A stretch of DNA of 64,000 bases from NCBI GenBank assembly GCA_963667785.2, contig CAXXMU010000006.1, forward strand, positions 1,120,001-1,184,000, read 5' to 3'. This DNA is from Alphaproteobacteria bacterium. Its GTDB lineage: Bacteria; Pseudomonadota; Alphaproteobacteria; UBA828. Shown piece after piece: positions 34,087 through 62,249 of the stretch. Below the pieces are notes generated by a model. It was given only the letters and a program-made list of their open reading frames with translations, ran no database searches and was not told the origin of the DNA. Positions within the stretch are counted from its first letter, which is position 1; every line of letters starts with the position of its first letter. The position numbers and the translations under genes were made by a program.

Positions 34087-34099
34087 GGCCCCGCGACTT

Positions 34100-37557: not shown

Positions 37558-37596
37558 GATCGGGCCTTCCGTGTGGTTGCCCCGGCAGGGCGGGCG

Positions 37597-38752: not shown

Positions 38753-38755
38753 GGG

Positions 38756-39019
38756 TCAGACCGCTTCGTTGTAGACTACGAACCCGGTGTCGATCTGCCT
38801 CTCCGTCCAGACGAAGATCCCGGTCGACGGCGAGCGGCGCTTGCGGATGCGCTCGTCCGGCTGCAGGCGGTTTGCCGACCGCCCGTCTACCGGCGGCGTG
38901 TCGAGCGGGGCGTCCTCGACGAAGATGATGATGTCGGCCCGGTTCTGGATTTCGTAGGGCGTGTTGACCTGGACGCCCTCGAGCGGCCGAGGCTGCCCCT
39001 TCAGGTTCTGCCGGGCCAT
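38756..39019 (-). CDS. hypothetical virion-associated protein
   Basis: Abuts scaffold gene. Confidence 0.65.
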   Translation of the reverse strand: MARQNLKGQPRPLEGVQVNTPYEIQNRADIIIFVEDAPLDTPPVDGRSANRLQPDERIRKRRSPSTGIFVWTERQIDTGFVVYNEAV

Positions 39020-39020
39020 G

Positions 39021-39833: not shown

Positions 39834-39887
39834 GGTTCACTCCTCCATCTCGGATTGTCGTTGCCCGTCGCGGGCGGGTTGGGGTCG

Positions 39888-41366
39888 TCACGGCCCGTCC
39901 ATCGGCCCGTCGAGTTTGTCGAGGTCCTTTTCCGGGTCGTAGCCGTCGTGAAGGACGCCGCGCCGTTTCATCTCGACCAGGAAGGCCTCGCGAGAAATCA
40001 GCGGCTGGGATCCCTGATCGGGCAGCGCCATCCTGATCAGGTGAGCCACGTCAGATTTGCTGTACCCGATGTCGAATTCGGTGTGCACCATGACCTCGGC
40101 CTTCCAGTCGTCGCCGACATCGAGCCATTTGGCGGTCATCTCGAAAGCGCCTTTGAGCGCGTGCTTGAGCATGAGCACCCAGGCATGGATGGCGATATTG
40201 GCCTTCTGGGTCGCCGACGCCGCGGACACCACGGTGAGGTTCGGCGCGGGTTGGGTCAGCAGTTGCCGGCCGAGCTCGCGCAGCTGCTGCACGGTCACGG
40301 CGATGTCCTGCTGGAGGAAGGTCAGCGATCCGCCGGCGGGTTCGACGTAGCCCCATTCGCCTTTGCCGTCGAGACCGCCGCCGCCCCACAGGATCCTGCT
40401 CGGCCCGACGACGATTTCCGTGTCCGCGTCCTTCGACATGCCGTTGGCGGCGAGCATGGGGTAGGCCGTCTGGGTGCGGATGTGCTTGAGGCCGTTCTCC
40501 TGTTGGTACAGTTCCACCTGGAGGTGCGCCGCGTTCTTGAGGGGCGCGTCGATCCGCCAGCCCGGGGCTTTGCGCTGCCCGAATATCACTGGCACGACGG
40601 GGATGACGTCGATATCGAGCGGATGGGGGCCCTCCTCGATTTCCCATTCCGAGCCGGCTACGTGCTGGCCGCTCGCGCCCGGCGTGTCCTTCTTCCTGTA
40701 CAGCAGCCATTCCGGCGCGCCGTACTCCCTGGTCTCGGGGTCCATCGGGCGCCGCAGCACGCGGATCCGGTCGTCTTTCTTCTCGGCGAAGCCTTCGCGC
40801 TTTGTTGCGGTCTCGGCGAAGCGGATTTCGACGATCTGCTCGACGCCCTTGATCCGGGCGGAGTAGACTGCCAGCACGTCGGCTGCGTGATAGTGGACCC
40901 AGATCGGCCGGGCCCCGAGTTCCTTCTCCTGGGCCACGCTGGCGCCGCGCGGGATGTTGGCGGTGTAGTCGACCAAGATCCAGGTGTGGCCGTCGACCAT
41001 GGCTTGCCGGAACAGGTCGTGCGAGAAGTCATGCACGTCGCTGCCGCGCCCGTCCACGTCCTTCGCGAATTCCACGAGCTGCTCCGTGGAGTCCTTCTCC
41101 ATCGTCCATTGCTCGTCGAACGGCTTGAGCGACTGGGTGTCGACGATATCGGCGAACACGTTGGTCATCCGCGCCAGGCGCAGCCGCCACTGGTAGGATT
41201 CCTCCGGCTCGCCCGGCCATTGGGGCAGATACTTCGTCCCGGCCGCGCGCATGCCGTCCACGCCGGCCATGATCGAGGCCACCATCGTGAGGTAGCCGTC
41301 CATGGCGATGCGGTCTCCACTCTTGGTGGAGGGGTCGTCCTTCGTCATTGCCGTCGGAAGGGCCAT
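39888..41366 (-). CDS. portal protein (DUF4055-like)
   Basis: MRAAGTKYLPQW..E...Y..RL, ILVDY; follows terL. Confidence 0.85.
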   Translation of the reverse strand: MALPTAMTKDDPSTKSGDRIAMDGYLTMVASIMAGVDGMRAAGTKYLPQWPGEPEESYQWRLRLARMTNVFADIVDTQSLKPFDEQWTMEKDSTEQLVEFAKDVDGRGSDVHDFSHDLFRQAMVDGHTWILVDYTANIPRGASVAQEKELGARPIWVHYHAADVLAVYSARIKGVEQIVEIRFAETATKREGFAEKKDDRIRVLRRPMDPETREYGAPEWLLYRKKDTPGASGQHVAGSEWEIEEGPHPLDIDVIPVVPVIFGQRKAPGWRIDAPLKNAAHLQVELYQQENGLKHIRTQTAYPMLAANGMSKDADTEIVVGPSRILWGGGGLDGKGEWGYVEPAGGSLTFLQQDIAVTVQQLRELGRQLLTQPAPNLTVVSAASATQKANIAIHAWVLMLKHALKGAFEMTAKWLDVGDDWKAEVMVHTEFDIGYSKSDVAHLIRMALPDQGSQPLISREAFLVEMKRRGVLHDGYDPEKDLDKLDGPMDGP

Positions 41367-41420
41367 CGGTGGTGATGGCTATGGTGCGAGCGGAATCTTT
41401 GTCAAGCGGGTGGCGCGCCC

Positions 41421-42881
41421 TTACGCCCGGCTTGCCATTCCTGCGAATTTCCCTTCCGACCGCGATGAGACTTTCGTGTTGGAGAAAAAGCCGTAGTGAC
41501 TTTGGCTTGCGCCGGGAGGGCGTCTCAAAAGCGCATCGAAGGCGGTGGACGTGGAATCCGCGTCGTCGTCATGGCCGTGCCGCTTGGGCGGCGGGAAGTT
41601 CTCCAACTCCCGGAACCAGCGCTCGTTCCAGTCGCCGCAGACCACATCCACGTTTCCGGGCTGCGCCTGTGCGGAGAACGGCTTGAACCGCGCCACCTTG
41701 TCGGTCGACACGGGGCGGAACCGGACGTTGAACCCGGCCAGCTTCCGCGTCAGCGCGACTTTCTGCGACACGCCGGCCTGGCCGGGGTCCTGCGGGATTT
41801 CGATGTCCACCGCCGTTCCGTCCTTCTGCGCGGTCGCGAGGATCATGTCCTCGACCCCGCTGGGCGACAGCCGGTCGAACACGTGGTCGGCCACGCAGTA
41901 CCGCTTCTCCGGGCTGACGCCCATGAGCGTGCCGCAGGTCCAGTCGGGGTCGGTTCCGGGTCTCGGCACCGTTCCGGCGAGGTCCCAGCCGCGCGCCCAG
42001 CGATACCCGTCCGGCCTGTAGTCCAGCATGTGGTCGGCCACCCAGCTCCGCTGGAAGTAATCCCCGCTCGAGGGCCTGACGTGCCAAGAGCCGTCAACAA
42101 GCTGAGCCTTTTCGAACGAGACGAGGCCGCTCATCATCTTCGCTTCGTAGAGCGGGTCGCTGTCCAGCAGAATCCTGTTGTCCCGCCAGCTCGCCGCCAC
42201 GAACGTCAGCGACAGAGGCGGCACGCCCCAGTCCGCGAGGTCCTCGCGCCGATTCGCCCACACGATCTCGTCGCCATCCCGGACGAACCACCGCAGCATT
42301 CCCGACCGCTCCCGTATAGGAAAGCCGGTGTCGGGGTCGATCCACCACTCGATGAGTTTGTGCACCCAAGAGTCGGCCTCGGGGTTGGTCGTGCCGCGCA
42401 TGTGCGGCGGCACCCCGGACATGCTCCGGTTCCTCGAGAGCATGTACCAGAACTGCCTCTCCTCGAACGTCGTCAGCTCGTCGAACCCGACGAACGCGAG
42501 CTCGGCACCGCGCCAGTCCATCGCCGCGTCGGGGTGCTCGAGGTGGCCCATCTGCAGCAGGGCGCCGCTCGGAAACCGCCACTCGTACTGCGGCTTCTCC
42601 CGGCTCTCTCCGCCGTAATCGAGAAACACGTCCTTCGACGCGTCCCAAAGCCCGCCGGGCCGCAGGAATTGCGGGCTGGTCCGCCGGAACAGGACGCCGC
42701 GGTACAAGCCGGGGTCGAACGACGCGCCTTCCTGGGGCACCACCCACTGCACGGCAGCCTGCAGAAGCGCCCAAGTCTTCCCGCTTGCCAACGTGCCGCC
42801 GAATATCGCGATGTCCGCCGGCGAGGCGAGAAATTCTTCCTGCGGGCCGGACTGCGGGCGAATGTCTATCTGGCGAGCCAT
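41421..42881 (-). CDS. terminase large subunit
   Basis: PQSGPQ, GG...GKT, FDELT, TTNP, WDLA, QDPGQAG, HDDDAD. Confidence 0.93.
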   Translation of the reverse strand: MARQIDIRPQSGPQEEFLASPADIAIFGGTLASGKTWALLQAAVQWVVPQEGASFDPGLYRGVLFRRTSPQFLRPGGLWDASKDVFLDYGGESREKPQYEWRFPSGALLQMGHLEHPDAAMDWRGAELAFVGFDELTTFEERQFWYMLSRNRSMSGVPPHMRGTTNPEADSWVHKLIEWWIDPDTGFPIRERSGMLRWFVRDGDEIVWANRREDLADWGVPPLSLTFVAASWRDNRILLDSDPLYEAKMMSGLVSFEKAQLVDGSWHVRPSSGDYFQRSWVADHMLDYRPDGYRWARGWDLAGTVPRPGTDPDWTCGTLMGVSPEKRYCVADHVFDRLSPSGVEDMILATAQKDGTAVDIEIPQDPGQAGVSQKVALTRKLAGFNVRFRPVSTDKVARFKPFSAQAQPGNVDVVCGDWNERWFRELENFPPPKRHGHDDDADSTSTAFDALLRRPPGASQSHYGFFSNTKVSSRSEGKFAGMASRA

Positions 42882-43248
42882 CGCGTGGTGTTTGTCGCCC
42901 CGCCGGACTCCTTGTCAAACGCTCCGCACGCCCACCGCCGGCGATGCTCCATCTTTCGCAGCCGCTCGATCAGCTTCGCGTGCCGGGTCCCTGTCGGCCT
43001 GTCCCCCGCATGCCGATACCAGGCGAGCAGGAATCTCAATTCGCGGTCGGGCTCCCTTGCCCTCCGCAGGAGCACCGCTATCCTCTCGACGAAGTACGGG
43101 GGAACGGGTTCGCCGACCATCCAATAGCGTTCAAAGGACGCCCGCACATAGTCGCACTGAAACGCCAGGTCCTGCTCCTTGCCCTTCCCGTAATCTTCGT
43201 CCGGCAACGGCAGCATATCGGGATACCTGTTGATCAGTTCGCCTCGCG

Positions 43249-43467
43249 TTACCGCACCCCCTTCTCTGCCGCCCAATGCACAGGCTCCGGGACCAGATCG
43301 GTACGGCCCTGCTCGATGGCTTCCCGAACGGAAAGATCGGCCTTGTACAGCCCGATCCAGTCGACACTGAGCGACCGCTGAAACGATCTGGCGAGATCCT
43401 CCACGGCCTCACTGGACAGCACGGGCTTCGCGTTCAGCCATTCAACGAGGCTGTCCGCCTTTCTCAA
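43249..43467 (-). CDS. small hypothetical protein
   Basis: TTG start overlapping upstream stop; start uncertain. Confidence 0.35.
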   Translation of the reverse strand: MRKADSLVEWLNAKPVLSSEAVEDLARSFQRSLSVDWIGLYKADLSVREAIEQGRTDLVPEPVHWAAEKGVR

Positions 43468-43952
43468 CTCTTTCGCCTGACCGGCCACGGCAGCCCCTCT
43501 CGCTCGGCGTAGCGCCGGGCCATGACCCTCGCCGCGGCCCCCTTGTCCCGGTCCGAGAGCCCGACCTCGCGCGCGATCGACACCCACGTCCGCCCGCCGG
43601 ACGCCTTCAGCTCGTACGCCCGCCGGCCCTTCTCCGACCTCGGCCGGCCCACCCCGCGCGGCGCACCTTCTTTTTTTGGGGGAGAAGCACTTTCCGCCCC
43701 CTGGCGCGAACCCTCAACCGCCCCCTCCTGAAAGGACGCCTTGACCCGGTCTCGAGCCTCAAGGACCTCCCGATACCATGACAGCCTCGGATCCCCACCC
43801 CGTGCCGCCCGCTCGGCCAGCTTCTTCGCCCCGGCCGCGTCCCACCCCGGACACCAACGGCTCGCTCCGGCCCAGTCCGGTCGTCCGAGCTGACCCAGCG
43901 CGCCGAGAACCCGATCCGCCGGCGAGCCCTTCGGCGGTGCCGTCCACTCCAT
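43464..43952 (-). CDS. hypothetical protein with C-terminal HTH-like motif
   Basis: RAYELK..GRTWVSIAREVG. Confidence 0.55.
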   Translation of the reverse strand: MEWTAPPKGSPADRVLGALGQLGRPDWAGASRWCPGWDAAGAKKLAERAARGGDPRLSWYREVLEARDRVKASFQEGAVEGSRQGAESASPPKKEGAPRGVGRPRSEKGRRAYELKASGGRTWVSIAREVGLSDRDKGAAARVMARRYAEREGLPWPVRRKS

Positions 43953-43966
43953 CGACCCCTCCCGAA

Positions 43967-44031
43967 TATTGTTACCCCTAAGCCCGAGAATAGTATTGTT
44001 ACCCCTCCCATGCTAGGATGTTGTTACCCCT
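43967..44031. repeat. three direct repeats T(A/G)TTGTTACCCCT
   Basis: At 43967, 43994 and 44019. Confidence 0.85.
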
Positions 44032-44642
44032 GCGCCGGGATCCACCCCAACCTTCTTCCAGGCGTCAAGCCGGGCCTCGGCGGCAGGGTAGGGGGTGGCC
44101 GGGTTTGCCGAGCTCGGGCGCCATGCGTCGGGCGCCGGTCACCAAACACAAGTTGCGAATCGATGCGCCGATAAGTGCCATTATGGGAAAGTGTATCAGG
44201 CCGGCCAGCAGTATCCGCAAACATTCGCGGGCATAGGGCGCCGACGGTCAAGTACCGGATCGGGCTTCACTGTCGCGAATACTGGCGAGGCGCGGCGGTC
44301 TCTACTTGGCGTCTACTTGCGGCCGTTATTGCGCGACATGCAGCGGGCGCATTGCCTGGCGCGAGTTGCTCCGCACGACGATCGGGCGCGCGAGGAGTCG
44401 GGCATGGTGGGCCCCGTATCCCTCAGCGCAGCGCATGGCCACGGCAGGGGCGAGACTGTGCGAGGCGACGCGTGCGGGCGTGACGCCAGGGCGAGCGGGG
44501 CCGGATAGGCGCGTGATGCGAGGCGACGGGGTCCGGGTCCTGCAGGGGCGGCGGGATAGGGCGCGTGGCGCAGGATGTCGCCGACGGGCGATTGGGGGAT
44601 GCGGGGCGAGTGTTGCGAGCGTGAGGCGACGCGGGCGCGTCG

Positions 44643-45362
44643 TCACTCGGCGGGAGCGGGCAAGGCGGGCGCGGAGTTTGGCGCGATCGCATCGGGCGCG
44701 TCGGCGGGATCGCTGTCGGGTGGCCGGCGGGCGGGCTCGGCCGTTGGCGTGATGTCGCGGGCCTGAATGGCGGGATCGTCGACGCTGCGCCGGGCGGGAA
44801 TGTGGTAGACGCGATGGACCTGCTCGCCTTCATGGCGGACGGTGGACTCCCGGCGGAACGTGCCGGCCTCGAGGTAGCGGGCAACCTCAAGCTGCAGCTT
44901 GGTGTCGTATTCCATGACGGGCACGCGGGAGCCGGCCGGGATGACGGCGCCGCTCGGCAAGGTGATGTCTTCGTCCGCCTCGATGATGATCGGCTTCCCG
45001 TCCCGGTCGACCTTCGGGCAGCCCGTCATGGCGCGATCGTACATGGTGGCGCGGAGCCGCGGGAGTAGCACGGCGCGGGCGAGCTCGTGCGCATCGTCGA
45101 GCGCCTGGGCGAACGTCGGATCCGCGATGCGCGCCTGAGATAGAGCTTGAGGCGATACGCCAGCATGCCGGGCCGCGGCAGCTTCGGACATGCCGCGCTC
45201 TACCGCCCGGCGGGCCCGGTCTTTCCAATTGCCGAGACGATGGAAGCGTGAGCGCTTGAGGCTGCGCCGGCGGGCCGGCTGGGAGCTCGGCTCGCCAGGC
45301 GCAACGGGCTGCGCTGCAGCGCGCGTTGCCGCTTCAATCCCGTCAATTGGCGAATCCGTCAT
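44643..45362 (-). CDS. probable terminase small subunit
   Basis: N-terminal HTH (AAARHAGVS..DPTFA), EYDTKL..L...F. Confidence 0.6.
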   Translation of the reverse strand: MTDSPIDGIEAATRAAAQPVAPGEPSSQPARRRSLKRSRFHRLGNWKDRARRAVERGMSEAAAARHAGVSPQALSQARIADPTFAQALDDAHELARAVLLPRLRATMYDRAMTGCPKVDRDGKPIIIEADEDITLPSGAVIPAGSRVPVMEYDTKLQLEVARYLEAGTFRRESTVRHEGEQVHRVYHIPARRSVDDPAIQARDITPTAEPARRPPDSDPADAPDAIAPNSAPALPAPAE

Positions 45363-45468
45363 GGTGCGGCAACGCAAGCACGATTCGGCACCGCATGTCA
45401 AGTGATTAGGCGCCGGCTGGCCTGGCCCAGCGCACGGCAGAAAATTGCGATATGCAGCCATTTTCCTC

Positions 45469-45497
45469 TTGCGTTACAGGGCCATTGGCCCTAGTAT
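45469..45497 (+). promoter_or_regulatory. sigma70-like promoter with palindromic operator
   Basis: TTGCGT-N17-TAGTAT; AGGGCCA-T-TGGCCCT at 45478-45492. Confidence 0.65.
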
Positions 45498-45547
45498 AGT
45501 AACGCTGAACAGGGGCAAAGCGCCCCGCTCAAATCGGAGAGAAAACG

Positions 45548-46915
45548 ATGAACGCGATCACCACGATCACCATGGACCATAACGACGTTGCCCGCGCCCT
45601 GGCCACCGGCAATCTGCCGAGCCCTGTTGCGACGGAAGCCAAGCCGGCGCCGGTCGAGACTCCCGAGCCGATCATGCAGCCCGCCGCGCCGGGCATGGCC
45701 GTTACGACAACGGTCAAAGACTTGCGCGCCGCGCTCATGGCCTGCGGCAAGGTAGTGGCGTCAAGCTCCTACGTTCCGATTCTGGAATGCGTGCGGATCG
45801 ACGCGGCAAGCCATTTCGGAAGCGACTATGTGAGCGTGAGCGGCACCGACATGGACGTCGCGGTCACGGTCACGCTGCAATCCGAAGTCTATACGGCCGG
45901 CGCCGTGATCCTGCCGCTGAAGCCGCTCAAGAAAACGCTGGTAAAGCGCAAGGCCGGCGAGCCGGTCAGCATCGAGGCGATTCCCGCGGATAGCCCGGAC
46001 GGCTCGCCAAGCGCGCGCATCACCGTCGGCGAGACCGAATTCCGCATGAGCTCCTACAGCACGGATGAATGGCCGGCCCCGGCGCCCGCGATCGAGCCGG
46101 AGGTAGCGGACATTCCCGGCGCGGCTCTGGCGGGCGCGATCGCCGACGTCGCGGCCGCGCAGTCCACCGAAGAGACTCGCTATTACCTCAATGGCGTTCT
46201 GTTCGAGCGGACCGACAAGGCGTTTCTCCGCACGGCCGCAACGGACGGGCATCGACTCCACGTGCACGATACGGGCTGGCATTGGCCGGCCATGGGAGTC
46301 CAGCGGACGGACGCCAAGACGGGCGAAACGGACCGCGAGCCGCGCGCCATCGTGCCGCGCCTGGCGATCACGGCGCTGCAGCACCTCTTGAAGGGCGCGA
46401 CGATCGACCGGGACATCCTGGTTTCGTCCGACGGTCACCGTATGGAATTCGAGGCGGACGGGTGGCGCCTGGCAACCAAGCTGATCGATGGCAGCTATCC
46501 GGACTTTGACCGTGTGATCGGCGCGGCGTTTCCGACCGTGGCGGGCGAAGAGGCGCCGACCGTGCACCATGCCGAGCTCGAGAACGGGCCGACTCTGGAT
46601 ACGATGCGCGCGATCAAGGCCGCGGCAACGGACCCCTCGCACGCCGCGCGGCTCGATTTCTCGGCGGGCGAGATTCGCGGCGGCAGCGTCGACTCCGGCA
46701 ATCACTCGCGGCACCCGCTGGCACGCGTCAATGGCGAGTGCGGAATTGGCGTGATCGGGCTGAATGCGGCCTATCTCGCCGACGTTGCCGAGCGCTTCGC
46801 GGACGTGGAGTCCGCATCGCTCACGCTCACCATGACGGATCCCGGCTCGCCGATAGGCGTCACGTCCGGCTGCAAGCCGTATTTCACGGCCGTCGTGATG
46901 CCCCTGCGCATCTAG
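45548..46915 (+). CDS. DNA polymerase III beta-clamp-like protein
   Basis: GTDMD, STEETRYYLNGV, ATDGHRL, KLIDGSYPDF.RVI, VVMPLR. Confidence 0.88.
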   Translation: MNAITTITMDHNDVARALATGNLPSPVATEAKPAPVETPEPIMQPAAPGMAVTTTVKDLRAALMACGKVVASSSYVPILECVRIDAASHFGSDYVSVSGTDMDVAVTVTLQSEVYTAGAVILPLKPLKKTLVKRKAGEPVSIEAIPADSPDGSPSARITVGETEFRMSSYSTDEWPAPAPAIEPEVADIPGAALAGAIADVAAAQSTEETRYYLNGVLFERTDKAFLRTAATDGHRLHVHDTGWHWPAMGVQRTDAKTGETDREPRAIVPRLAITALQHLLKGATIDRDILVSSDGHRMEFEADGWRLATKLIDGSYPDFDRVIGAAFPTVAGEEAPTVHHAELENGPTLDTMRAIKAAATDPSHAARLDFSAGEIRGGSVDSGNHSRHPLARVNGECGIGVIGLNAAYLADVAERFADVESASLTLTMTDPGSPIGVTSGCKPYFTAVVMPLRI

Positions 46916-46919
46916 CGCA

Positions 46920-47001
46920 GCCGAAACCGGGCGCGGTGCGATGGGGCACCGCGTCCGGTCCGGGTGCCGCTGGCCGGGCGCCCGCTGACGATGGCAGGCC
47001 A
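46920..47001 (+). ncRNA. type II hammerhead ribozyme HH1
   Basis: GCC-GAAA-stem III(13 bp)-GUC^46960-stem I(8 bp)-CUGACGA-U-GGC; loop UGGCC can pair with tail GGCCA. Confidence 0.88.
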
Positions 47002-47018
47002 CCAAGGGACACCACGCA

Positions 47019-47135
47019 ATGAATCACCTCGAGATCCTGATAGTGCTGGGATTTACCGCCGTCGCGATTCCCTTCGCGCTCGGCACCGTGCGCGCGCTCG
47101 GGCGCCTGCTGCCCATGGAAGGGGAGACAGACTAG
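47019..47135 (+). CDS. 38-aa membrane peptide between HH1 and HH2
   Basis: MNHLEILIVLGFTAVAIPFALGTVRALGRLLPMEGETD. Confidence 0.6.
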   Translation: MNHLEILIVLGFTAVAIPFALGTVRALGRLLPMEGETD

Positions 47136-47211
47136 CCGAAACCGGGCCCCGCGCACCTGGGGCCCGGTCTGGCGGGCGCTGGCCGGCCCGCCTACTGACG
47201 AAGGCAGGCCA
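47135..47211 (+). ncRNA. type II hammerhead ribozyme HH2
   Basis: GCC-GAAA-stem III(9 bp)-GUC^47169-stem I-CUGACGA-A-GGC; same loop and tail as HH1. Confidence 0.85.
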
Positions 47212-47233
47212 AGGGACAAGAGGAGTCGAGAGA

Positions 47234-47515
47234 ATGCACGAAGTAGCGCAATACGAAGCTGAGCGCTTTGAAGAGCTTTGGGCCGATGCTGTCGCGAGCG
47301 ATAGGCCTGACCGCTGGCAGGGCAAGCCGTACAGGCTGAACTCCGGCCGCTGGGGAACATGGATCCAGCATCCGACCGGCCAGGGGCCGAAGGTTGGCGA
47401 TACCGTGACCGTGACCACGCGGCGCGGCAAGCGTTGGGACGCGACGATCACGGGCATCGTCGACCGGTCTATGGCGGGCGAGCTCGCGGCATCCGTCGTG
47501 ACCACGGCGCGCTAG
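47234..47515 (+). CDS. hypothetical protein
   Basis: GAGGAG RBS; GDTVTVTTRRGK. Confidence 0.65.
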   Translation: MHEVAQYEAERFEELWADAVASDRPDRWQGKPYRLNSGRWGTWIQHPTGQGPKVGDTVTVTTRRGKRWDATITGIVDRSMAGELAASVVTTAR

Positions 47516-47606
47516 GCAGGGATTCCGGCGGGAAGCGGCCGCCCGCCCGGCCGTTTCACGATGCAATCCCGCATCGCTGGTCAAGGGACATGAAAGGCCA
47601 AGGGAC

Positions 47607-48260
47607 ATGAAACCGAATCCGATCTATGAGAAGTGCCGCGCCGCGAACGGCGAGAAGACCGTCTATGTGAGCCTGACCGATACCGCGAAGCTGATTCGCG
47701 CCACGCTAAAGGCAAAGTTTCCCGACATCAAGTTTTCCGTCCGCTCTGAGCGCTATTCGGGCGGATCCTCGATCCGCGCCAGCTGGCTTGATGGGCCGCT
47801 CGGCTCCGCCGTGCAAGAGGTGATCACGCCCTATGCCGGCAAGGGTTTCGACGGAATGATCGATATGGACTACCTCAAGGGCGCGTGGCTCTACCCCGAC
47901 GGCTCCGCCGGGTTTCGCAAGTCGGACGGTACCGCCTACAGCGCCGGCTCTGTCTCCGCCTATCGGCACGCGCCTGCGAACCCGGACGCCCTGCCGGTCA
48001 GTTTCTGGGTGTCCTACGTCTTCGCCGAGCGGCGCATCTCTGCCGGCTACCTCAGCGGCGTTCTCGAGGATTACGCCAAGGTGTACGGCGATGAGCTCGC
48101 CGACGCGATCCGCGCCGGCAAGGTGACCGCAACGGGCGATGACGGGTACGCGCACATGAGCGGCGCGAACGGAATCCGCGTCGGGAACGATTGGGCCGAC
48201 GTCGCGATCTATCGCTTTGACCAAGAGCGCGCGGCATTGCTCGCCAGGGTCGCAGCCTGA
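47607..48260 (+). CDS. LPD29-like domain protein
   Basis: TAKLIRATLKAKFPDIKFSVRS..YSGGSSI...W.DGP, FDGMID. Confidence 0.75.
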   Translation: MKPNPIYEKCRAANGEKTVYVSLTDTAKLIRATLKAKFPDIKFSVRSERYSGGSSIRASWLDGPLGSAVQEVITPYAGKGFDGMIDMDYLKGAWLYPDGSAGFRKSDGTAYSAGSVSAYRHAPANPDALPVSFWVSYVFAERRISAGYLSGVLEDYAKVYGDELADAIRAGKVTATGDDGYAHMSGANGIRVGNDWADVAIYRFDQERAALLARVAA

Positions 48261-48261
48261 A

Positions 48262-48335
48262 GGCGAAACGGGCCGGCGGGCAACCCCGCCGACCCGTCGC
48301 GCGGCCCTGGCGAGCCGCGCCCGATGAGCCAGCCA
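48262..48335 (+). ncRNA. type II hammerhead ribozyme HH3 (core variant CCGAUGA)
   Basis: GGC-GAAA-stem III-GUC^48298-stem I(7 bp)-CCGAUGA-GCC; loop UGGC / tail GCCA. Confidence 0.72.
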
Positions 48336-48362
48336 AGGGACACCGAAGAGAGGCCAAGGGAC

Positions 48363-48719
48363 ATGAACGCGAACCATCTTCGCTGCGATACGACGCTGGG
48401 CCCGCTATGCGGCGCGCACGGCCGCATGATCCGCTACAGCAAAGCGAATGTCACCTGCAAGCGCTGTCAGGCGATCGCCGAGAAAACCCCGACGATCGAT
48501 CCCGAGACCGCGATTTTCCTGCGCCGCGTCGCGCTCGACCTCGCCGAGCGGGGCATCGAGGCACCGACCGAAGCCGACATGATCGACGGCATGCGCCGCA
48601 CGATCGAGCGCGACGACGAATTGCTCGCGGCGTTCACCCGGGCCAATCCGGACGAGCGCGGCGCGTTCTCCGAGTGGCTCGCCTCGCGCATCCACCAGCG
48701 CATCAACGCCACCGCCTAG
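48363..48719 (+). CDS. hypothetical protein (Cys/His N-terminus)
   Basis: H....PLCG..VTCKRC. Confidence 0.65.
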   Translation: MNANHLRCDTTLGPLCGAHGRMIRYSKANVTCKRCQAIAEKTPTIDPETAIFLRRVALDLAERGIEAPTEADMIDGMRRTIERDDELLAAFTRANPDERGAFSEWLASRIHQRINATA

Positions 48720-48746
48720 CCAAGGGACATGAAAGGGACACTGACC

Positions 48747-49064
48747 ATGACCAGCCAAGGGACACCGAACGGAAACGGAGCGCGCCAGCCGACCAGGGCG
48801 CACCACTACATGGCCGACGGCCAGAGCTCGCCGCTTTGGCTTGCCGTCACGGCGCAGACCATGACCGACGTCGGCCGCGAGCGCCGGCGCTTCGAGGCGC
48901 GGGACGGCTCGGCGATCATCGCCACGCCGACGCGCCAGGGCCTCGGCGTGCACCGCGACAAGCTCGAGGCCGCCCGCGAGCGCTACAGCTTCGGCGCGCT
49001 CATCCTGGGCGCGTTCGTCGAGGACGGCCACGGGCTGACCGCGGACGACGCGCTGCCGGCCTGA
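48747..49064 (+). CDS. hypothetical protein
   Basis: ORF in operon. Confidence 0.6.
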   Translation: MTSQGTPNGNGARQPTRAHHYMADGQSSPLWLAVTAQTMTDVGRERRRFEARDGSAIIATPTRQGLGVHRDKLEAARERYSFGALILGAFVEDGHGLTADDALPA

Positions 49065-49066
49065 CC

Positions 49067-49134
49067 GCCGAAACCGTCCGGGCCCGGTCAAGGGACGCCG
49101 GACGGTCTGCGGGTCGCTCCCGCACTGACGAGGC
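49067..49134 (+). ncRNA. type II hammerhead ribozyme HH4
   Basis: GCC-GAAA-stem III-GUC^49107-stem I UGCGGG/CCCGCA-CUGACGA-GGC. Confidence 0.85.
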
Positions 49135-49173
49135 AACGGCGGATCGCTCCCGCCAGCCAAGGGACATGAAGCC

Positions 49174-49950
49174 ATGACGCGGAATCATTACGAGGAGAAG
49201 CAGGAGAGGCGCCGCGAGCGCCTCGAGGAGGCCGCCGACCGGGCCGAGCGTGAAGGCCACGCCAAGATCAACCGCGGGCGCGATATGGCGTCCGTGATCC
49301 CGTTCGGCCAGCCGATCCTTGTGGGGCACCACTCGGAGAAGCGAGACCGGAACTATAGGAGGCGCATCGACAACACCATGCGCGCCGGCCACGAGTCCCT
49401 CGAACGGGCGGGCGATCTCCGCGCGCGCGCCGCGGCGGTCGGCACCGGCGGTATCAGCAGCGACGATCCCGACGCGCCCGACAAGCTCCGCGAGCGCCTC
49501 GAGGAGCTGGAGAAGAAGCAAGCGCACATGAAGGAAGTCAACAAGGCGCTCCGCAAGGGCGACGATGCGGCGCTCGCCGCGATGGGGCTTTCTGCCGAAG
49601 CCGTCGCCAAGCTGAAGGAACCCGACTTTGCCGGCCGCACGGGCTATCCGGACTATGCGCTGACCAACAACGGAGCCAATCTCCGGCGGCTCAGGAAGCG
49701 TCTCGCCCGCCTGGAAAGGCACGCGGACGACGAGACCACGAGCGAAACGGTGGGCAAGGTGGAGATCCGCGACAACGCGGAAATAAACCGCGTGCAGATC
49801 ATCTTTCCTGGCAAGCCCGACGAGGGAGTCCGCCGCCAGCTGAAGGCGAGCGGATTCCGTTGGGCGCGCAGCGAGGGAGCATGGCAGCGCCACCGCTCGG
49901 CGGGCACGCTCCACCAAGCTCGGGCCATCGTCGCCGGGCTGCCGCAGTAG
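49174..49950 (+). CDS. DUF3560-family protein
   Basis: IPFGQPILVGHHSEKRDR, ISSDDPDA, LK.SGFRW. Confidence 0.85.
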   Translation: MTRNHYEEKQERRRERLEEAADRAEREGHAKINRGRDMASVIPFGQPILVGHHSEKRDRNYRRRIDNTMRAGHESLERAGDLRARAAAVGTGGISSDDPDAPDKLRERLEELEKKQAHMKEVNKALRKGDDAALAAMGLSAEAVAKLKEPDFAGRTGYPDYALTNNGANLRRLRKRLARLERHADDETTSETVGKVEIRDNAEINRVQIIFPGKPDEGVRRQLKASGFRWARSEGAWQRHRSAGTLHQARAIVAGLPQ

Positions 49951-50108
49951 CGACGCCAGCGGGTGTCGCTCCGCCCTGGGGCGGCACTCACGGGCGCCGA
50001 GAGGCGTTCCCTACCATGCGGGCCGGATAGGCTGGCCCGCGCCATTGGCCCTACAATCCCAGTCGATCGCTACCGGGCTTGTGGCCCACCGGGAACAGGA
50101 GAGATCGG

Positions 50109-50282
50109 ATGACTTTCGCGACCTACGCTGCCAACCCCGCCGAGGATGTTTTCGTGCCGGTTCGCGTCCCGGGCTGGCACGCCGTCGACGGCGAAGCTCG
50201 CTCCGCTCGCGTCGAATTCGTGGACGGCCGCCGCGTCTGGGTGCCCGCCTGGGCCCTGCACGACATCTATACCGACGCCTGA
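50109..50282 (+). CDS. small hypothetical protein
   Basis: AGGAGA RBS. Confidence 0.55.
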   Translation: MTFATYAANPAEDVFVPVRVPGWHAVDGEARSARVEFVDGRRVWVPAWALHDIYTDA

Positions 50283-50441
50283 CGCAGAAACGGGCGGCCC
50301 AAGGGACACCCGAACCGCCCGTTTCGTGCTGGCCGCGCTCTCGCACGGGCCAAGGGACGCCACTACCCTAGTCAGGGGACGCCGGTCCGGTCAAGGAACA
50401 TGAAGAGGGCCCTAGTCAGGGGACATGAGGAGGACACGACC

Positions 50442-50699
50442 ATGAAGCCCGAAGAATTCCGCGCGATCCGAGAGAGCGCGGGCCTGTCGCAAGGTCGCCT
50501 CGCCCGCCTGCTCGGCCTGGGGCGAGACGGTGGCCGGGCGGTACGGCGATGGGAGAGCGGCGAGCGCTCGATCGGCGGGCCGGTGACGATCTGCATGAGG
50601 GCACTTGAGCTCGGCGTGCTGCAGCCGGGGGAAGACGGCACCCCGGAGCTGCGGGGGAAGCCCAAGGCCAAGGGACGCCGGACTGGTCAGGGGACATGA
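50442..50699 (+). CDS. XRE-family HTH protein
   Basis: FRAIRE..GLSQ..LA..LG...VRRWESGER. Confidence 0.85.
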   Translation: MKPEEFRAIRESAGLSQGRLARLLGLGRDGGRAVRRWESGERSIGGPVTICMRALELGVLQPGEDGTPELRGKPKAKGRRTGQGT

Positions 50700-50766
50700 A
50701 GCCCCGGTCGCCCCGCGCGCGCCGGCGCAGTCAAGGGACAGGACACCAGCCAGGGGACATGAAACC

Positions 50767-50952
50767 ATGCCGGAGAAGATCACCGATTTCGTGGTCCAAT
50801 ACCGCTTGCCAGACGGCTCGCCATGGACCGATCACGGCGGCCACGACGACCTCGAGGCGGCCCGCCGCTTCGTCGAACGCCGGACGCCTGACGCAGATCG
50901 CGAGTGGCGCATCATGCGCCGAACGTGGACCCAGGTCGACTACGCCAGATAG
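50767..50952 (+). CDS. small hypothetical protein
   Basis: Last ORF of plus-strand operon. Confidence 0.55.
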   Translation: MPEKITDFVVQYRLPDGSPWTDHGGHDDLEAARRFVERRTPDADREWRIMRRTWTQVDYAR

Positions 50953-52367
50953 CCAACCGGCGTCTCGGGGTAGGCCAGCTCGCGGGGATCGTTGTAGCCC
51001 CGCCACCCCGGGGCAACGTAGTTGATCAGCAGCGTGCGCCGCACGCCTTCGATCGGGCGCGGCCGGAACCCGTGCCATGTGTCGGAGGCCGGCACGAAGA
51101 TGGCGCCGACGTTGTCGGCATAGGGCAGCCGCTTCGCTGGCGTCTCCGGATCGTGGAAGAGGTCGGTCCCCCAATCCGGGCCGTCGCCGCCCTCGTCCAT
51201 GTAGATGAACATGGTGAACACCTTGTCCGCGATATCGGTGTGCGGCTTGCTCCAGTAGCCCTCCGTGTCGTGGGCGTACTCGATCCGCAGGTAGGTGCCG
51301 GCCAGGTCGATGCCGCAGAACCGCTCGAGCGCCTCGGTCACCCGCGGACCCTGGAACGCTTCCGCCAGTGCGCGGGACGAGGGCATGTCGCCGATGGCGC
51401 ACGCATCGACGAACTGCCGCCCGGCATTGTGCTCCTGCCGGCAGCCGTGGTCGTAGTGGAGCTCGCGCGCCTGGGCGGGCCAGGCCTTGAGGCCGGCGAG
51501 TGTGTCGGGGTCGAGCACGTCCTCGAGGAGCCAGTGCCGGAACGGCTCGGCCTCCTCCTCGGCGCGCTGCAACGCGGAGAGGATGGCCGCCTCCGCCGCC
51601 GGCGTGCCGGTGCTCCGCCCGGCTGCCGCGACGGCTTGCACCGCCTTCGGCGCGCCCGCCCGGGCGGCTTCCTCGTGGTAGCGGAGGAACAGGTCCACGC
51701 AATCCCTGCGCTGATGGTCCCGCCTCTTCCCCTGATACCAGTGCTTGCGCGGGCGGTGCGAGACATTGCGCTGCACCGCGCTCCGAAGCCGCGCGTCCGC
51801 GAGCACCGCGGCGGGCTGCGTCGACATGTCCGTGAAGTGCAGCCCCTTGATCGCCTCGAGCGGCATGTCCTCGCCGTCGAGACAGTTCCACCGAGGATCA
51901 AGCTTGGCGATGTGCTCGCGCCCGATCGTGTCTTGAAGGCGGGCGTGCGCTCCGGAATCGCCCCTCATCGCCTCGATTGAGGGAAGTACCTCGCGCGCCG
52001 AAGCGCAATCGAAGACCGACACGCACAGGCGGCCCGGCCAGCGCGCCATGATGGGCTTGCCCCCCAGATCCGCATGCCAGAGCTCGGCCAGGTCGCCGAG
52101 CACGAGCACGTCGTTGTCCATGTAGATGGCGCGGCCCTCGTGGCCGGCGGCCTCCGGTACGGCCCAGCGGTATCCGCTGAACGGCGTGGCCCACCGGCGG
52201 CGATCCCAGCCCGCCCACGGGCCTTCCGAAGCGTCGGCGCGCATCCAGGTGATGTCGACAGGCAGCGAGCTGTGCTTTCTGGCGCTGTGTTCCAGCACGC
52301 GCTCCGTTTCCAGATCCATGCCGCCGGGGCTGGCACCGACGAAGAGCCTGATGGATCCTGCGCTCAT
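50940..52367 (-). CDS. GT-A glycosyltransferase fused to 2OG-Fe(II) oxygenase
   Basis: TPFS..RW..RAIYMDND..DLAELW, WN.LD, LHFT; C-terminal PHTD...WHG...RRTL. Confidence 0.8.
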   Translation of the reverse strand: MSAGSIRLFVGASPGGMDLETERVLEHSARKHSSLPVDITWMRADASEGPWAGWDRRRWATPFSGYRWAVPEAAGHEGRAIYMDNDVLVLGDLAELWHADLGGKPIMARWPGRLCVSVFDCASAREVLPSIEAMRGDSGAHARLQDTIGREHIAKLDPRWNCLDGEDMPLEAIKGLHFTDMSTQPAAVLADARLRSAVQRNVSHRPRKHWYQGKRRDHQRRDCVDLFLRYHEEAARAGAPKAVQAVAAAGRSTGTPAAEAAILSALQRAEEEAEPFRHWLLEDVLDPDTLAGLKAWPAQARELHYDHGCRQEHNAGRQFVDACAIGDMPSSRALAEAFQGPRVTEALERFCGIDLAGTYLRIEYAHDTEGYWSKPHTDIADKVFTMFIYMDEGGDGPDWGTDLFHDPETPAKRLPYADNVGAIFVPASDTWHGFRPRPIEGVRRTLLINYVAPGWRGYNDPRELAYPETPVGYLA

Positions 52368-53154: not shown

Positions 53155-54057
53155 TCAGTTCTCCGGCTTCGGCGGGAGGTCGACGAGAGGTCGGCAGCGC
53201 GCGTGGATCTCCAGCGCCCGCACCTTGAACGCCGCGAACCGCTCTGTCGCGTCGGCGTCGCCGATGTCGAGCGGCACGTAGCCGGACCATGGGCACGAGA
53301 GCAGCCGGTCGACCGCCTCGGCCAATCCAAGGGAGCTCTGCCGGATCGCACGGTACAAAGCGTAATAGCGGCCCCTTGCCTCGTGCGAGTAGAGCGTGAA
53401 ATCCACGATGCCCTTGCCCAGCAGGCCGGCCACGAGCCCCATCTCGCTCGCAGTGGTGTAGCCCACCACGTCCGCCTGCCGCAGCAGAGCCATGCCGCTC
53501 ACGTTCTTCGGGTAGACCCGTGCCGGCCCGAGCGGGGCGACGAAGGCCTCGTGCACGAAATCGTCCGGCGTCACCGGGTGCGGCTTGCACATCCACGCAG
53601 CGTCGGTCTCGAAGGCCCTTCGCACGTTGTCGCCGCTCACCATGTAGCTCAGGTCCTCGCCTGGCGGGAACCATATCTTCCTGGCCGCCCCGGCATCCTC
53701 CGATATGTCGGCCGCCGCCCACTTGTCGGCGATGCTCCGCGCTATCGCCTCGGCCCTGCCGTGCTCGACCGTGCCGTTCCACACCAGCACCGCGTCCAGC
53801 GCGAGGCGCAGGTTCACCTCGGCCGACATCGGAGACGCGATGAACGTGCCGAATCCCTCCGTGTAGGCCCAGGCGAGGGGGATGGTCATGTCGACGACGT
53901 AACTGGCCACGTCGTAGACCGGAATGTCCGGGGCCATTACCCGGCGGAAAATCGCTTCCAGTCGCTCCAGGTCAGGCAGTGAACCGCGGCCATCCGAGGG
54001 TAGCCCCTCTTCCTTTCTGACTTCCGCCACGCTCTTGAGCATGAAGTCCATATTCAT
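53155..54057 (-). CDS. KpsS/KpsC-like (GT-B fold) protein
   Basis: KPHP and SEMGLVAGLLGKGI motifs. Confidence 0.55.
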   Translation of the reverse strand: MNMDFMLKSVAEVRKEEGLPSDGRGSLPDLERLEAIFRRVMAPDIPVYDVASYVVDMTIPLAWAYTEGFGTFIASPMSAEVNLRLALDAVLVWNGTVEHGRAEAIARSIADKWAAADISEDAGAARKIWFPPGEDLSYMVSGDNVRRAFETDAAWMCKPHPVTPDDFVHEAFVAPLGPARVYPKNVSGMALLRQADVVGYTTASEMGLVAGLLGKGIVDFTLYSHEARGRYYALYRAIRQSSLGLAEAVDRLLSCPWSGYVPLDIGDADATERFAAFKVRALEIHARCRPLVDLPPKPEN

Positions 54058-54357
54058 TATCGGATGGCTCCGTGACTCGGGTGATCGCCGCAGTCGGCCT
54101 CGGCAACGGAATCCTTGTCAAGTGGGCGCTTGACGGGGCTGCGCTAGGACGCCCCGGCGAAGCCGAAAGGCCATTTGGCGGGTAAGGCCCTTAGCGTAAA
54201 ATGGTGCCAGCCATGGCAGTGATCTCCTATGCCTACCCAGCTAGGGACCCGCATTGCCGTGGCTAGCGTCCCAACTGGTGCCGGCGGTGCCGGTTGGGAC
54301 ACGCCTCCCCTTTCGGGACAAGGGCAAGCTCTTCATCGTGTTCGCCCTTCAAATGTC

Positions 54358-56466
54358 TCACACGACGCCCTGCACGGCGATGCGGGCCCGCGCGTAGATG
54401 CCATCGGTGTAATACACCTGCCAATCTCTCGCGAAGCCGTATGCCCAGCCGCGCACGCCTGCGGTGTAGTCGCCGACCCACAGAGCCCGCTTGCCGCCCC
54501 GGAACTCGTGCATGACGGTGGCGAACTTATCCAGGTCCCCCACGGGGACTTGCACGTCGAACCGATGGAGCGTCGTCGCGGAGCGCTGGATCGTCGTCAG
54601 ATCGCCATAGATATTCGTCTCGACATGAGAGAAATCCAGACCCTCGAATCCGCTATCCCCGATCTGCGCGTCTCCAACGTTCTGGGTGCTTCCCAGCACG
54701 GCTTGACCGCACGAGAGTTTGGCGCCGCCCGACAAGCTGAGCTCCACATAGTCCGCGATGTTTTCGTCAGGGATATCGCCGATGATCACGCCCCCGCTCT
54801 CATCGTCTACCGGCACGATCCGCGTGTAGATCACCGCGCCGGCCGGTCCGTTCCTCCTCAGCGTCACGGTGACGCTCGAGCAGTCGATCAAGTTGATCAG
54901 AGCCACCTCGTTGATGGTCTGCGGCGTGCTCGTGTTGCGGGTCATCGCGAAACTGGTGTTGCGGGACGAGGTGAAGGTCGTGGAGCGGGAGCCGAAGCGG
55001 GTGGCACGGCTCCCCGTGCTCGTCTGGCGGCTGGCGGCGCTCGTGCTCCGGCTCCCCGTGCTCGTGCTCCGCTGCGTGGCGGTGGTGTTGCGGGTGGTAT
55101 AGACGGTGGAGCGGCTGGCGAGGTTCGTGCTCCGGCTCCCCGTGCTCGTGCTCCGCTGCGTGGCGGTGGTGCTGCGGGTCCCCAAGGAGGTACTGCGAAT
55201 TTCGCTGACGAACTGGGTCGAGCGGGTCGTCGCCGTCGTGTTGCGGCTCCCCGTGCTGGTCGAGCGGGTGACGGTTCCCGTCGTATTTCTAACGCCGGCG
55301 TTGGTCGAGCGGCTGCCCGTGCTCGTGTTGCGCGTCGGCGTCGTGTTGCGGCTCACATTGGTCGAACGGCTGGCCTGCGTGGAGCGAAATTGGCCACGCT
55401 GGCCAGTGGTGTTGCGGGTGAAAGTGGTGTTGCGGGTGGTATAGACGGTGGAGCGGCTGGCGAGGTTCGTGCTCCGGCTGCCCGTGCTCGTGCTGCGGGT
55501 CAACTGCGTCGAGCGGGTGACGGTTCCCGTCGTGTTCCGGCTGCCGGTGCTGGTCGAACGGGTCGTCGCCGTCGTGTTGCGGCTCCCGTGCTCAGTCGTC
55601 ACCCGGCTGCCCAGGCTCGTCTCGCGGCTGGAGACGGTGGTGTTGCGGCTCCCCGTGCTCGTGTTGCGCGTCGGCGTCGTGTTGCGGCTCACATTGGTCG
55701 AACGGCTGCTCGCGCTCGTCAGGCGGCTGCCCGTGCTCGTCTGGCGGCTGCCAGCGCTCGTGCTCCGGCTGCCCGTGCTCGTCTGGCGGCTCGAGATGCC
55801 GCTCGTAACGCGGCTGTCCTGAAAGCTCGTGTTCCGATTACCAATACCGGAGAGCGTCGTGCGGCTCAGCGCTCCCAGGTTAATCCCGGCCAGCAGGACA
55901 TTGGGGTTGGTCGCCCCCTGAGATGGCCTTCCGTCGAACAGGCGCCACTTGTTCGTCTGTCCGATATAGACCCAGTGCAGCGGGTCTGGATCTTCCACCA
56001 GGGGATCGGCGACGGCGGCAGCTTCGGCGGTCGGGGAATTGGCGGCGGGAAGAGCCGAGCGTTCGACAGCGGCATTATCGGCGACGGCAGCGTCAAGCCC
56101 GGCCCTGAGGGTGAGCGTTTCAGTATTGCGATCCACTGACTGCACGATGGCCGTCACCGTGCCCAATGTGATCGTGTCACCTGCGTCGATGCCCGTATTC
56201 GCGGCCCCCACGTCATCCACAACGATGCTCGTCGCGCTTGCGGAGTAGCCACCGGACTTGTTCACACGGGTCGAGAACGCGTCGCTCTCGCGCGAAGACG
56301 AGGTGTGGTCTCTGAGGGACTGATAGACAGAGTGCACGGACGAAATCATGCGATAGTCGCCGCGCTTCAGCGTCTGACCGGCAGCCCACTCCGGGTAGTC
56401 GTTCTCCGTCAGATTTCCAGCGACGTACGCCGAGTCGGAAATCGGGATCGGCGAGATCACATCCAT
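54358..56466 (-). CDS. tail protein with long Ser/Thr/Arg-rich repeat insert
   Basis: Follows tape measure; ENDYPEW..W...G.TNKWRLFD; ~300 aa of RNTT/RSTSTGSR repeats. Confidence 0.75.
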   Translation of the reverse strand: MDVISPIPISDSAYVAGNLTENDYPEWAAGQTLKRGDYRMISSVHSVYQSLRDHTSSSRESDAFSTRVNKSGGYSASATSIVVDDVGAANTGIDAGDTITLGTVTAIVQSVDRNTETLTLRAGLDAAVADNAAVERSALPAANSPTAEAAAVADPLVEDPDPLHWVYIGQTNKWRLFDGRPSQGATNPNVLLAGINLGALSRTTLSGIGNRNTSFQDSRVTSGISSRQTSTGSRSTSAGSRQTSTGSRLTSASSRSTNVSRNTTPTRNTSTGSRNTTVSSRETSLGSRVTTEHGSRNTTATTRSTSTGSRNTTGTVTRSTQLTRSTSTGSRSTNLASRSTVYTTRNTTFTRNTTGQRGQFRSTQASRSTNVSRNTTPTRNTSTGSRSTNAGVRNTTGTVTRSTSTGSRNTTATTRSTQFVSEIRSTSLGTRSTTATQRSTSTGSRSTNLASRSTVYTTRNTTATQRSTSTGSRSTSAASRQTSTGSRATRFGSRSTTFTSSRNTSFAMTRNTSTPQTINEVALINLIDCSSVTVTLRRNGPAGAVIYTRIVPVDDESGGVIIGDIPDENIADYVELSLSGGAKLSCGQAVLGSTQNVGDAQIGDSGFEGLDFSHVETNIYGDLTTIQRSATTLHRFDVQVPVGDLDKFATVMHEFRGGKRALWVGDYTAGVRGWAYGFARDWQVYYTDGIYARARIAVQGVV
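54925..55865 (-). repeat. nested low-complexity repeats encoding T/S/R-rich tract
   Basis: Recurring cggctccccgtgctcgt blocks; duplicated STNLASRSTVYTTRNTT and STNVSRNTTPTRNTSTGSR. Confidence 0.9.
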
Positions 56467-56478
56467 GACCGGTCCCGC

Positions 56479-62244: not shown

Positions 62245-62249
62245 GGCGG

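Follow-up and report, generated by a model that had tools for sequence, protein, structure and literature searches.

Can a prophage transcript divide itself into separate messages by means of ribozymes placed between its genes? The question is raised by a 64,000-nucleotide (nt) stretch of contig CAXXMU010000006.1, from an alphaproteobacterial genome (assembly GCA_963667785.2), which we call the window and number from its first base. Here a first-pass annotation, made from the letters alone, had placed four type II hammerhead ribozymes in a phage operon. Judged by sequence and predicted fold, these elements (HH1 to HH4) are genuine hammerheads of type II. We consider it very likely that they lie in the replication or establishment module of a prophage and would cut its transcript into five messages.

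Four hammerheads in 2.2 kilobases

Each element was located by Rfam, by a further covariance model (R1) and by a sequence descriptor, and was also folded, as described below. Stem lengths are in base pairs (bp).

46919-47003, + strand: HH1, type II hammerhead, predicted cut after C46960; stem II GCC/GGC, core CUGACGA, stem III 14 bp, stem I 8 bp.
47134-47213, + strand: HH2, type II hammerhead, predicted cut after C47169; stem II GCC/GGC, core CUGACGA, stem III 10-11 bp, stem I 8 bp with one bulged U.
48261-48338, + strand: HH3, hammerhead with a variant core, predicted cut after C48298; stem II GGC/GCC (swapped), core CCGAUGA, stem III 12 bp with one C/A mismatch, stem I 7 bp.
49066-49142, + strand: HH4, type II hammerhead, predicted cut after C49107; stem II GCC/GGC, core CUGACGA, stem III 9 bp plus an inner helix, stem I 6 bp with a 5-nt loop.

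The Rfam model Hammerhead_II (RF02276) matches the + strand at all four sites. HH2 (47134-47213) scores 37.9 bits, above the gathering score of 37 bits. The other scores come from a scan of positions 44000-52000 at expectation values (E) up to 10 and lie below it, at 31.8 bits for HH4 (49066-49142), 29.7 for HH3 (48261-48338) and 24.8 for HH1 (46919-47003; E 0.14 in this 8 kb scan). The Rfam check that came with the first-pass annotation thus has a divided outcome, with all four sites matched and HH2 alone over the cut-off. What lowers the Rfam scores is the length (10-14 bp) and very high G+C content of the stem III helices. A scan of the whole window at E up to 5 reports no other ribozyme family.

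R1 was built from 35 aligned hammerheads, none of them from the window. The training alignment (A2) holds 34 of the 40 hammerheads that exceed the gathering score in viral contigs, plus one (L006) from a genome of the same order. Left out were two L107 rows with scores identical to L085 rows, L099:6200 and L099:7545 with scores identical to L087 rows, L083:6335, which is nearly identical to L083:6648, and L083:5953, which has a long stem III insertion. Run with filters off over the whole 64 kb, R1 scores HH2 at 52.2 bits, HH1 at 45.5, HH3 at 34.2 and HH4 at 28.8, with E-values of 4.5e-11 to 3.8e-5. The fifth-best match reaches 14.8 bits (E 0.12), and this search finds no fifth copy in the window.

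The descriptor specifies a stem II strand, GAAA, a stem III hairpin, UH, a stem I hairpin, C[U/C]GANGA, zero or one extra base and the second stem II strand. On both strands of the 4,094,588-base genome it yields five matches, four of which are HH1-HH4. It places the cleavage-site nucleotide C17 at 46960, 47169, 48298 and 49107, exactly where the cuts had been proposed. The sole other match, on contig C5 at 193712-193828 (+), has a CCGAGGA core and stems of 6 and 7 bp and is probably a chance occurrence. Weak extra Rfam matches in the genome (20-22 bits) fall at other places than this one. Rfam, R1 and the descriptor therefore agree on four type II hammerheads at the positions first claimed and on the + strand.

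Each element begins at or within 4 nt of an upstream stop codon, in keeping with the 5 nt originally stated. HH1 starts at 46919 after a TAG at 46913-46915, HH3 at 48261 after a TGA at 48258-48260 and HH4 at 49066 after a TGA at 49062-49064; the TAG at 47133-47135 overlaps the start of HH2. All four lie between + strand open reading frames (ORFs), as several coding-strand ribozymes flanking prophage genes.

The topology is that of type II in every copy, with stems I and III closed by loops and stem II open. All four have GAA-A...U-C with the cleavage site GUC, an A15.1-U16.1 pair (alignment columns 8/41), a G10.1-C11.1 pair and a stem II of 3 bp, where at least 2 bp had been asked for. The core C3-U4-G5-A6-N7-G8-A9 is intact as CUGACGA in HH1, HH2 and HH4. 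HH3 has both the swapped stem II and the CCGAUGA core described earlier. It is a core variant derived from the Hammerhead_II family and not a consensus member, because U4C disqualifies it under the strict criteria of Perreault et al. (2011, PMC3088659). Between A9 and G10.1 there is an extra U in HH1, an extra A in HH2 and no extra base in HH3 and HH4, a detail absent from the first-pass annotation. Taken alone, the stem III hairpins fold with about -23 to -31 kcal/mol, and the loop of the HH4 hairpin carries GUCAAGGGACG.

HH1-HH3 keep a pseudoknot in which loop I pairs with the 3' tail, as the first-pass annotation had it. It consists of UGGCC/GGCCA (5 bp) in HH1 and HH2 and of UGGC/GCCA (4 bp) in HH3. 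Such a pseudoknot occurs in most, not all, type II members. The HH4 tail is unmatched by R1, whose alignment there covers model positions 2-60 only.

The stems differ between copies with their pairing kept, which had also been claimed. A MAFFT alignment of the four copies (A1) left the stems out of register and was not used; covariation was scored on the copies aligned to R1 (A3). In this alignment, which is fitted to the model and leans towards its structure, pairing is seen in 96.8% of 63 cells, and both partners have changed in 11 of 16 pairs, a result reached by 0 of 500 shuffles. In slid controls the paired share is 31-40% of cells. At minimum free energy the minimal element folds into the hammerhead junction in HH1, HH3 and HH4, and the HH2 fold differs from it by a terminal U-A pair only (2.7 kcal/mol). 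For the 35 outside hammerheads, RNAalifold recovers the three-stem type II fold with compensated changes in 12 of 16 pairs. Their pseudoknot helix, added by hand, is 89% paired and changes on both sides in four of five pairs.

Two further structures lie close by. Just 3' of HH4, at 49138-49154 (+), there is a second hairpin, GGCGG-AUCGCUC-CCGCC, in which the 3' half of stem I (UCGCUCCCGC) recurs. This hairpin might be a competitor of stem I in HH4 or a partial duplication. A hammerhead-like remnant occupies 50283-50359 (+), directly after the stop codon of a 57-amino-acid (aa) ORF. It reads CAGAAAC, a hairpin with CCAAGGGACA in its loop, GUUUC, a hairpin with UGGCC in its loop, and GGCCAAGGGACG. 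The CUGANGA box is missing and A replaces C11.1. Neither the Rfam hammerhead model nor R1 matches this segment, and on the opposite strand Rfam gives a weak ftsZ-DE match, whose 29.8 bits fall short of the cut-off (72.2).

The operon and its repeated motif

The elements separate the following features.

45469-45500, + strand: promoter-like site (TTGCGT, 17 nt, TAGTAT) whose spacer holds the inverted repeat GGCCA-T-TGGCC.
45548-46915, + strand: gene for a sliding clamp (DNA polymerase processivity factor), 455 aa.
47019-47135, + strand: hydrophobic 38-aa ORF between HH1 and HH2, taken from the ORF list.
47234-47515, + strand: 93-aa ORF of no known family by Pfam or PHROG.
47607-48260, + strand: gene for an LPD29-domain protein, 217 aa (PF18847, E 1.8e-19; phrog_15549).
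48363-48719, + strand: 118-aa ORF of no known family by Pfam or PHROG.
48729-49064, + strand: 111-aa ORF with an uncertain start; its first 36 bases contain the repeated motif twice.
49174-49950, + strand: gene for a DUF3560 protein, 258 aa (PF12083, E 2.9e-32).
47003-50759, + strand: repeated motif G-Y-CARGGRACR, 19 copies, looser pattern CA[AG]GG[GA]AC[AG].

The clamp matches PF02767 (E 1.7e-18) and phrog_947 (E 3.4e-46). The DUF3560 protein matches phrog_6744 (E 1e-56) and phrog_19458, annotated as 'primase' (E 5.8e-45). The 38-aa ORF is presumably a real gene and has no Pfam or PHROG match. Best Atlas scores for the 93-aa and 118-aa proteins (0.84 and 0.81) are uninformative. The 57-aa ORF and a helix-turn-helix (HTH) protein are encoded further downstream on the + strand. 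ORF selection by G+C content at third codon positions (GC3) agrees for the larger operon genes.

The ribozyme module is located within a prophage, between late modules. The head (33-45 kb) and tail (53-64 kb) modules, both encoded on the - strand, enclose this + strand module. The left side (33436-45461) includes terminase-small-like, large terminase, portal, scaffold, major head protein and adaptor genes, the head genes spanning 33436-42881. The tail genes on the right (53155-63540) include those for the tape measure, a tail completion protein and a chaperone. The clamp, together with the DUF3560 protein and its primase-like PHROG, gives the module the look of one for replication or establishment. 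The earlier label 'host takeover' goes back to nothing but the name LPD29. LPD domains were defined from polyvalent proteins that phages and conjugative elements encode, and it has been suggested that they aid the early invasion phase even as solo proteins (PMC5512222). A tRNA gene (56.9 bits) occupies 32835-32906 (-), in the interval from a lysin-like gene (31157-31879) to the gene for the head-tail adaptor (33436-34086). It may belong to the phage or mark an attachment site.

A promoter scan found two sites in 9 kb against 0.8 expected, and reports the 45469 site as GTTACA-16-TATAGT. The 13-mer GCCATTGGCCCTA, which contains the inverted repeat GGCCA-T-TGGCC, is present at 45481-45493 and again at 50041-50053 (+). 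Each copy is followed by a -10-like hexamer (TAGTAT and TACAAT, respectively), and the 50041 copy precedes the 57-aa ORF. By sequence, the pair looks like a shared operator in two + strand promoters of the module. Because the 13-mer recurs at 50041, the HTH gene probably sits behind a second promoter/operator-like site as a separate transcription unit. The single transcript first proposed, from 45469 through the HTH gene, thus keeps its promoter-like start, and its reach through the HTH gene is doubtful. The only terminator-like site on the + strand lies within the clamp gene, with such sites as frequent as expected by chance.

The module is also marked by a repeat. CAAGGGACA has 18 exact copies in the genome, 11 of them within 3.7 kb at 47003-50732 (+). 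With up to one mismatch there are 22 matches in the window against 9.4 expected, a number that 0 of 100 shuffles reaches. Copies occur in the tails of HH1-HH3 directly after the pseudoknot strand, whose GCCA the motif supplies, and in intergenic stretches singly or in tandem. One copy lies in the stem III loop of HH4 at 49089 and another in the loop of a hairpin at 50288-50324, within the hammerhead-like remnant. Tandem copies, mostly 17-25 nt apart, precede the starts at 47607, 48363, 48729, 49174, 50442 and 50767.

Nearly every start codon of the module is preceded by the motif, which resembles a Shine-Dalgarno sequence (the genome has the canonical 16S 3' end, to which its AAGGG or AGGGG would pair). 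The start codon follows 7 nt after the motif in three cases (47019, 49174 and 50767); elsewhere the motif's own ACAUG overlaps the annotated start. The motif AUG also opens mini-ORFs of six codons (47590-47610) and three codons (49166-49177) on the + strand, whose UGA overlaps the start codons of the LPD29 gene (47607) and the DUF3560 gene (49174), respectively, as AUGA. Other hammerhead-bearing phages likewise repeat a tail-plus-ribosome-site sequence of their own, and for this reason the simplest reading of the motif is a module-specific extended translation-initiation signal. The tandem and hairpin-loop copies are unaccounted for by it. The motif was also considered as a CsrA site and rejected: the genome has no CsrA, and 0 of 10 ORFs in the operon region (nine + strand, one divergent) match Pfam CsrA at E up to 0.01.

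No related phage carrying the motif was found in the viral loci. GCCAAGGGACATGAA occurs in 42 of them with one copy each, about the chance level by our own estimate, and GGCAGGCCAAGGGAC in 56, none behind a hammerhead core. Tandem CAAGGGACA was found at at least 119 loci; those inspected that have at least three copies are for the most part microsatellites with a 7-nt unit, repeats within coding sequence or iterons like those of origins, and none is informative. Six ATCAAGGGACATC direct repeats about 22 bp apart, together with inverted copies, occur in an unrelated viral contig (L201, 2978-3100; 63% G+C). This array looks iteron-like, and it probably has its 9-mer in common with the window motif by chance.

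Relatives and precedents

A blastn search with 45400-50800 against 50,697 phage records found three records, all with a 126-nt match to a primase gene. Against 49 genomes of the order, this DNA matches only itself, other matches being at most 63 nt long. The clamp protein has relatives at three loci in genome contigs (24-28% identity) with no hammerhead at E up to 1, and no match in viral or metagenome contigs. The DUF3560 protein matches six viral-contig loci (L033-L038) at 36-44% identity, and these also contain no hammerhead at E up to 1. The LPD29 protein has no match in viral contigs. RF02276 matches 5 of 101 genomes (100 relatives and the source genome) at E up to 0.01, and two of these, including the source genome, exceed the cut-off. 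Such a sporadic distribution is what a mobile element would be expected to show. A literature search found no paper joining 'hammerhead' and 'DUF3560'.

Hammerhead clusters of the same type are present in viral contigs. A core-plus-tail pattern selected 29 contigs, 16 of which contain descriptor hammerheads, with up to 12 per locus. Rfam, run on 10 of the 29 loci, reports 40 Hammerhead_II matches over the gathering score (11 in L106, six in L105, five each in L083 and L099). Of these 40, 26 start between -12 and +6 nt relative to the stop codon of an ORF that stays open for 50 codons or more, and 35 are followed within 120 nt by an ORF start. The same run reported two tRNAs and four RAGATH-28 RNAs (67-73 bits, cut-off 45.3), the latter at L084 10983-11062, L105 2803-2884, L085 3833-3913 and L107 1608-1688.

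These IMG/VR clusters resemble the window operon in the subfamily signature CUGAYGA-N-GGCAGGCCA, in the order of stop codon, ribozyme, tail, Shine-Dalgarno site and start, and in a tail-plus-ribosome-site sequence repeated within a phage, such as TCACGGAGG seven times in L099. They differ in lacking relatives of the operon's proteins, for which tblastn matches were confined to the hammerhead-free L033-L038. The window repeat, in contrast to theirs, is CAAGGGACA and is present also away from ribozymes.

The elements share with the RF02276 family the open stem II, the loop-closed stems I and III, the GAAA and CUGANGA cores, GUC and, in HH1-HH3, the pseudoknot UGG.../...CCA, and the HH3 tail, AGCCAAGG, fits the family consensus AGCCaAAg. 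They depart from it in the long G+C-rich stem III (10-14 bp), the U4C of HH3, the lack of the canonical pseudoknot in HH4 and the extra base of HH1 and HH2.

Clusters of this kind have precedents. Perreault et al. described the first natural type II hammerheads, with the loop I/tail pseudoknot and a frequent association with prophages, and put forward the idea that processing of long phage transcripts yields mRNAs the length of an operon or a gene (PMC3088659). Clusters from C. scindens, Azorhizobium caulinodans and Agrobacterium tumefaciens cleaved in vitro in that study, and the A. tumefaciens cluster also in vivo when cloned and expressed in E. coli. As here, same-strand prophage hammerheads in these clusters flank single genes or short blocks and adjoin small establishment-type phage genes, and cutting of a polycistronic RNA was proposed. 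The three A. tumefaciens hammerheads flank ardA, whereas those in the window adjoin clamp, LPD29 and DUF3560 genes. Cleavage was demonstrated experimentally for the published clusters and is predicted for the present one. In D. vulgaris, three type II hammerheads beside hypothetical or phage-like genes were found by cyPhyRNA-seq to be cleaved in cells (Olzog et al. 2021, PMC8782182); they occupy three separate genome locations, and the elements described here share one operon. Clustered prophage hammerheads and their proposed role are already in the literature, to which this locus adds one example. The four ribozymes may already be listed in Dataset S1 of PMC3088659.

Predicted self-cleavage and its alternatives

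Once transcribed, each element would fold its stems I, II and III round the CUGANGA/GAAA core, and in HH1-HH3 the loop I/3' tail pseudoknot would hold stems I and II side by side. Hammerheads cleave 3' of C17 by an internal transesterification that leaves a 2',3'-cyclic phosphate and a 5'-OH. The RNA would thus cut itself after 46960, 47169, 48298 and 49107. Upstream messages would each finish with a strong stem III hairpin bearing a 2',3'-cyclic phosphate. Downstream messages would each open with a 5'-OH on the stem I hairpin, followed by the tail and a Shine-Dalgarno-like site. The mono- and bicistronic units first proposed fit the element positions, which would give five messages with decay and translation uncoupled: the leader with the clamp; a 209-nt unit (46961-47169) with the 38-aa ORF; the 93-aa ORF with LPD29; the 118-aa and 111-aa ORFs; and DUF3560 onward. 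We would expect efficient cleavage of HH1 and HH2 with great confidence. HH4 would probably cleave efficiently too. For HH3 we put the chance at about even, and with its U4C change it may cut slowly or not at all.

Several points weigh against this picture. Three of the four elements (31.8, 29.7 and 24.8 bits) score under the Rfam gathering score of 37. The HH3 core, CCGAUGA with U4 replaced by C, fails the strict hammerhead consensus, and the Discussion of PMC3088659 states that U4C considerably lowers in vitro activity. HH4 is without the usual UGGC/GCCA pseudoknot, and a 4-bp CGCU/GGCG pairing is a possible replacement on reading its sequence; the same study reports one hammerhead that was inactive at 0.5 mM Mg2+ without its pseudoknot. 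HH1 and HH2 carry the extra base after A9. This base is also present in 43 of 49 descriptor matches of the viral loci, a biased count in that the selecting pattern contains the extra base, and in L006, which an Rfam search of relatives, free of this bias, had found. The searches turned up no orthologous operon with which the ribozyme positions could be compared. Expression and cleavage at this locus are themselves predictions.

Some or all of the elements, above all HH3 and HH4, could be decaying remnants that no longer cleave and act only as intergenic hairpins, stabilising mRNA or doing nothing. We regard this as improbable. The CCGAUGA core of HH3 would fit it, as would the tail of HH4, unmatched by R1 and without a canonical pseudoknot, and decay of such elements does seem to happen here, because the same module holds the remnant without a CUGANGA box at 50283-50359. 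In PMC3088659, moreover, 4 of 18 consensus hammerheads were inactive in vitro. However, every core base is kept in HH1, HH2 and HH4, and all four copies retain their three stems through compensatory changes, which argues for selection on the fold. Even the HH3 change has an active counterpart, a natural viroid variant in which U4C is reported to leave enough activity in vivo for infectivity (PMC3088659, Discussion); the core change is the same, although that viroid infects plants and its hammerhead has a type III context.

Cleavage might also not be constitutive and be coupled to translation through the motif, which we think unlikely. A ribosome standby interaction, or a phage or host RNA-binding protein on the motif, would then compete with the pseudoknot. 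If this were true, binding would set, gene by gene, the balance between ribozyme cutting and downstream translation.

Far less probable still is that cleavage is followed by ligation, so that flanked segments such as the 209-nt 46961-47169 become circular or spliced RNAs. The 5'-OH and 2',3'-cyclic phosphate ends are ligation substrates, and section 6 of PMC3088659 raises this possibility, but its authors state that circular or spliced products escaped their detection. The 98%-complete genome contains no RtcB (PF01139) in a search whose control detected it in 10 of 14 known genomes, and the flanked units hold ordinary ORFs with start signals. Chance resemblance, that is, hairpins near short GAAA and CUGANGA words, is effectively refuted by the descriptor genome scan and the R1 scan. 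Hairpins are frequent in a genome of 69.7% G+C, and one descriptor match does lie elsewhere. However, four matches are packed into 2.2 kb and the remaining 8.2 million bases scanned on both strands give one, the R1 E-values (4.5e-11 to 3.8e-5) leave a 14-bit gap to the next match, and all four elements are on the coding strand directly 3' of stop codons.

Cutting of the transcript into five messages by genuine type II hammerheads is the reading we prefer. Self-processing of a polycistronic RNA into parts of differing stability or translation is the standard published hypothesis (PMC3088659; PMC6765202). The 2019 review (PMC6765202) proposes such differing stabilities or translation efficiencies, and states that the purpose of bacterial and phage ribozymes is still to be defined and needs more work.

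The locus leaves knowledge of hammerheads in general unchanged, and is one more clean four-ribozyme example of its class. It also offers a test bed within a single operon, which combines two strong consensus members (HH1 and HH2), one without the usual pseudoknot (HH4), one with U4C (HH3) and an apparent remnant. Cleavage rate, tertiary contact and downstream expression could thus be compared within one transcript.

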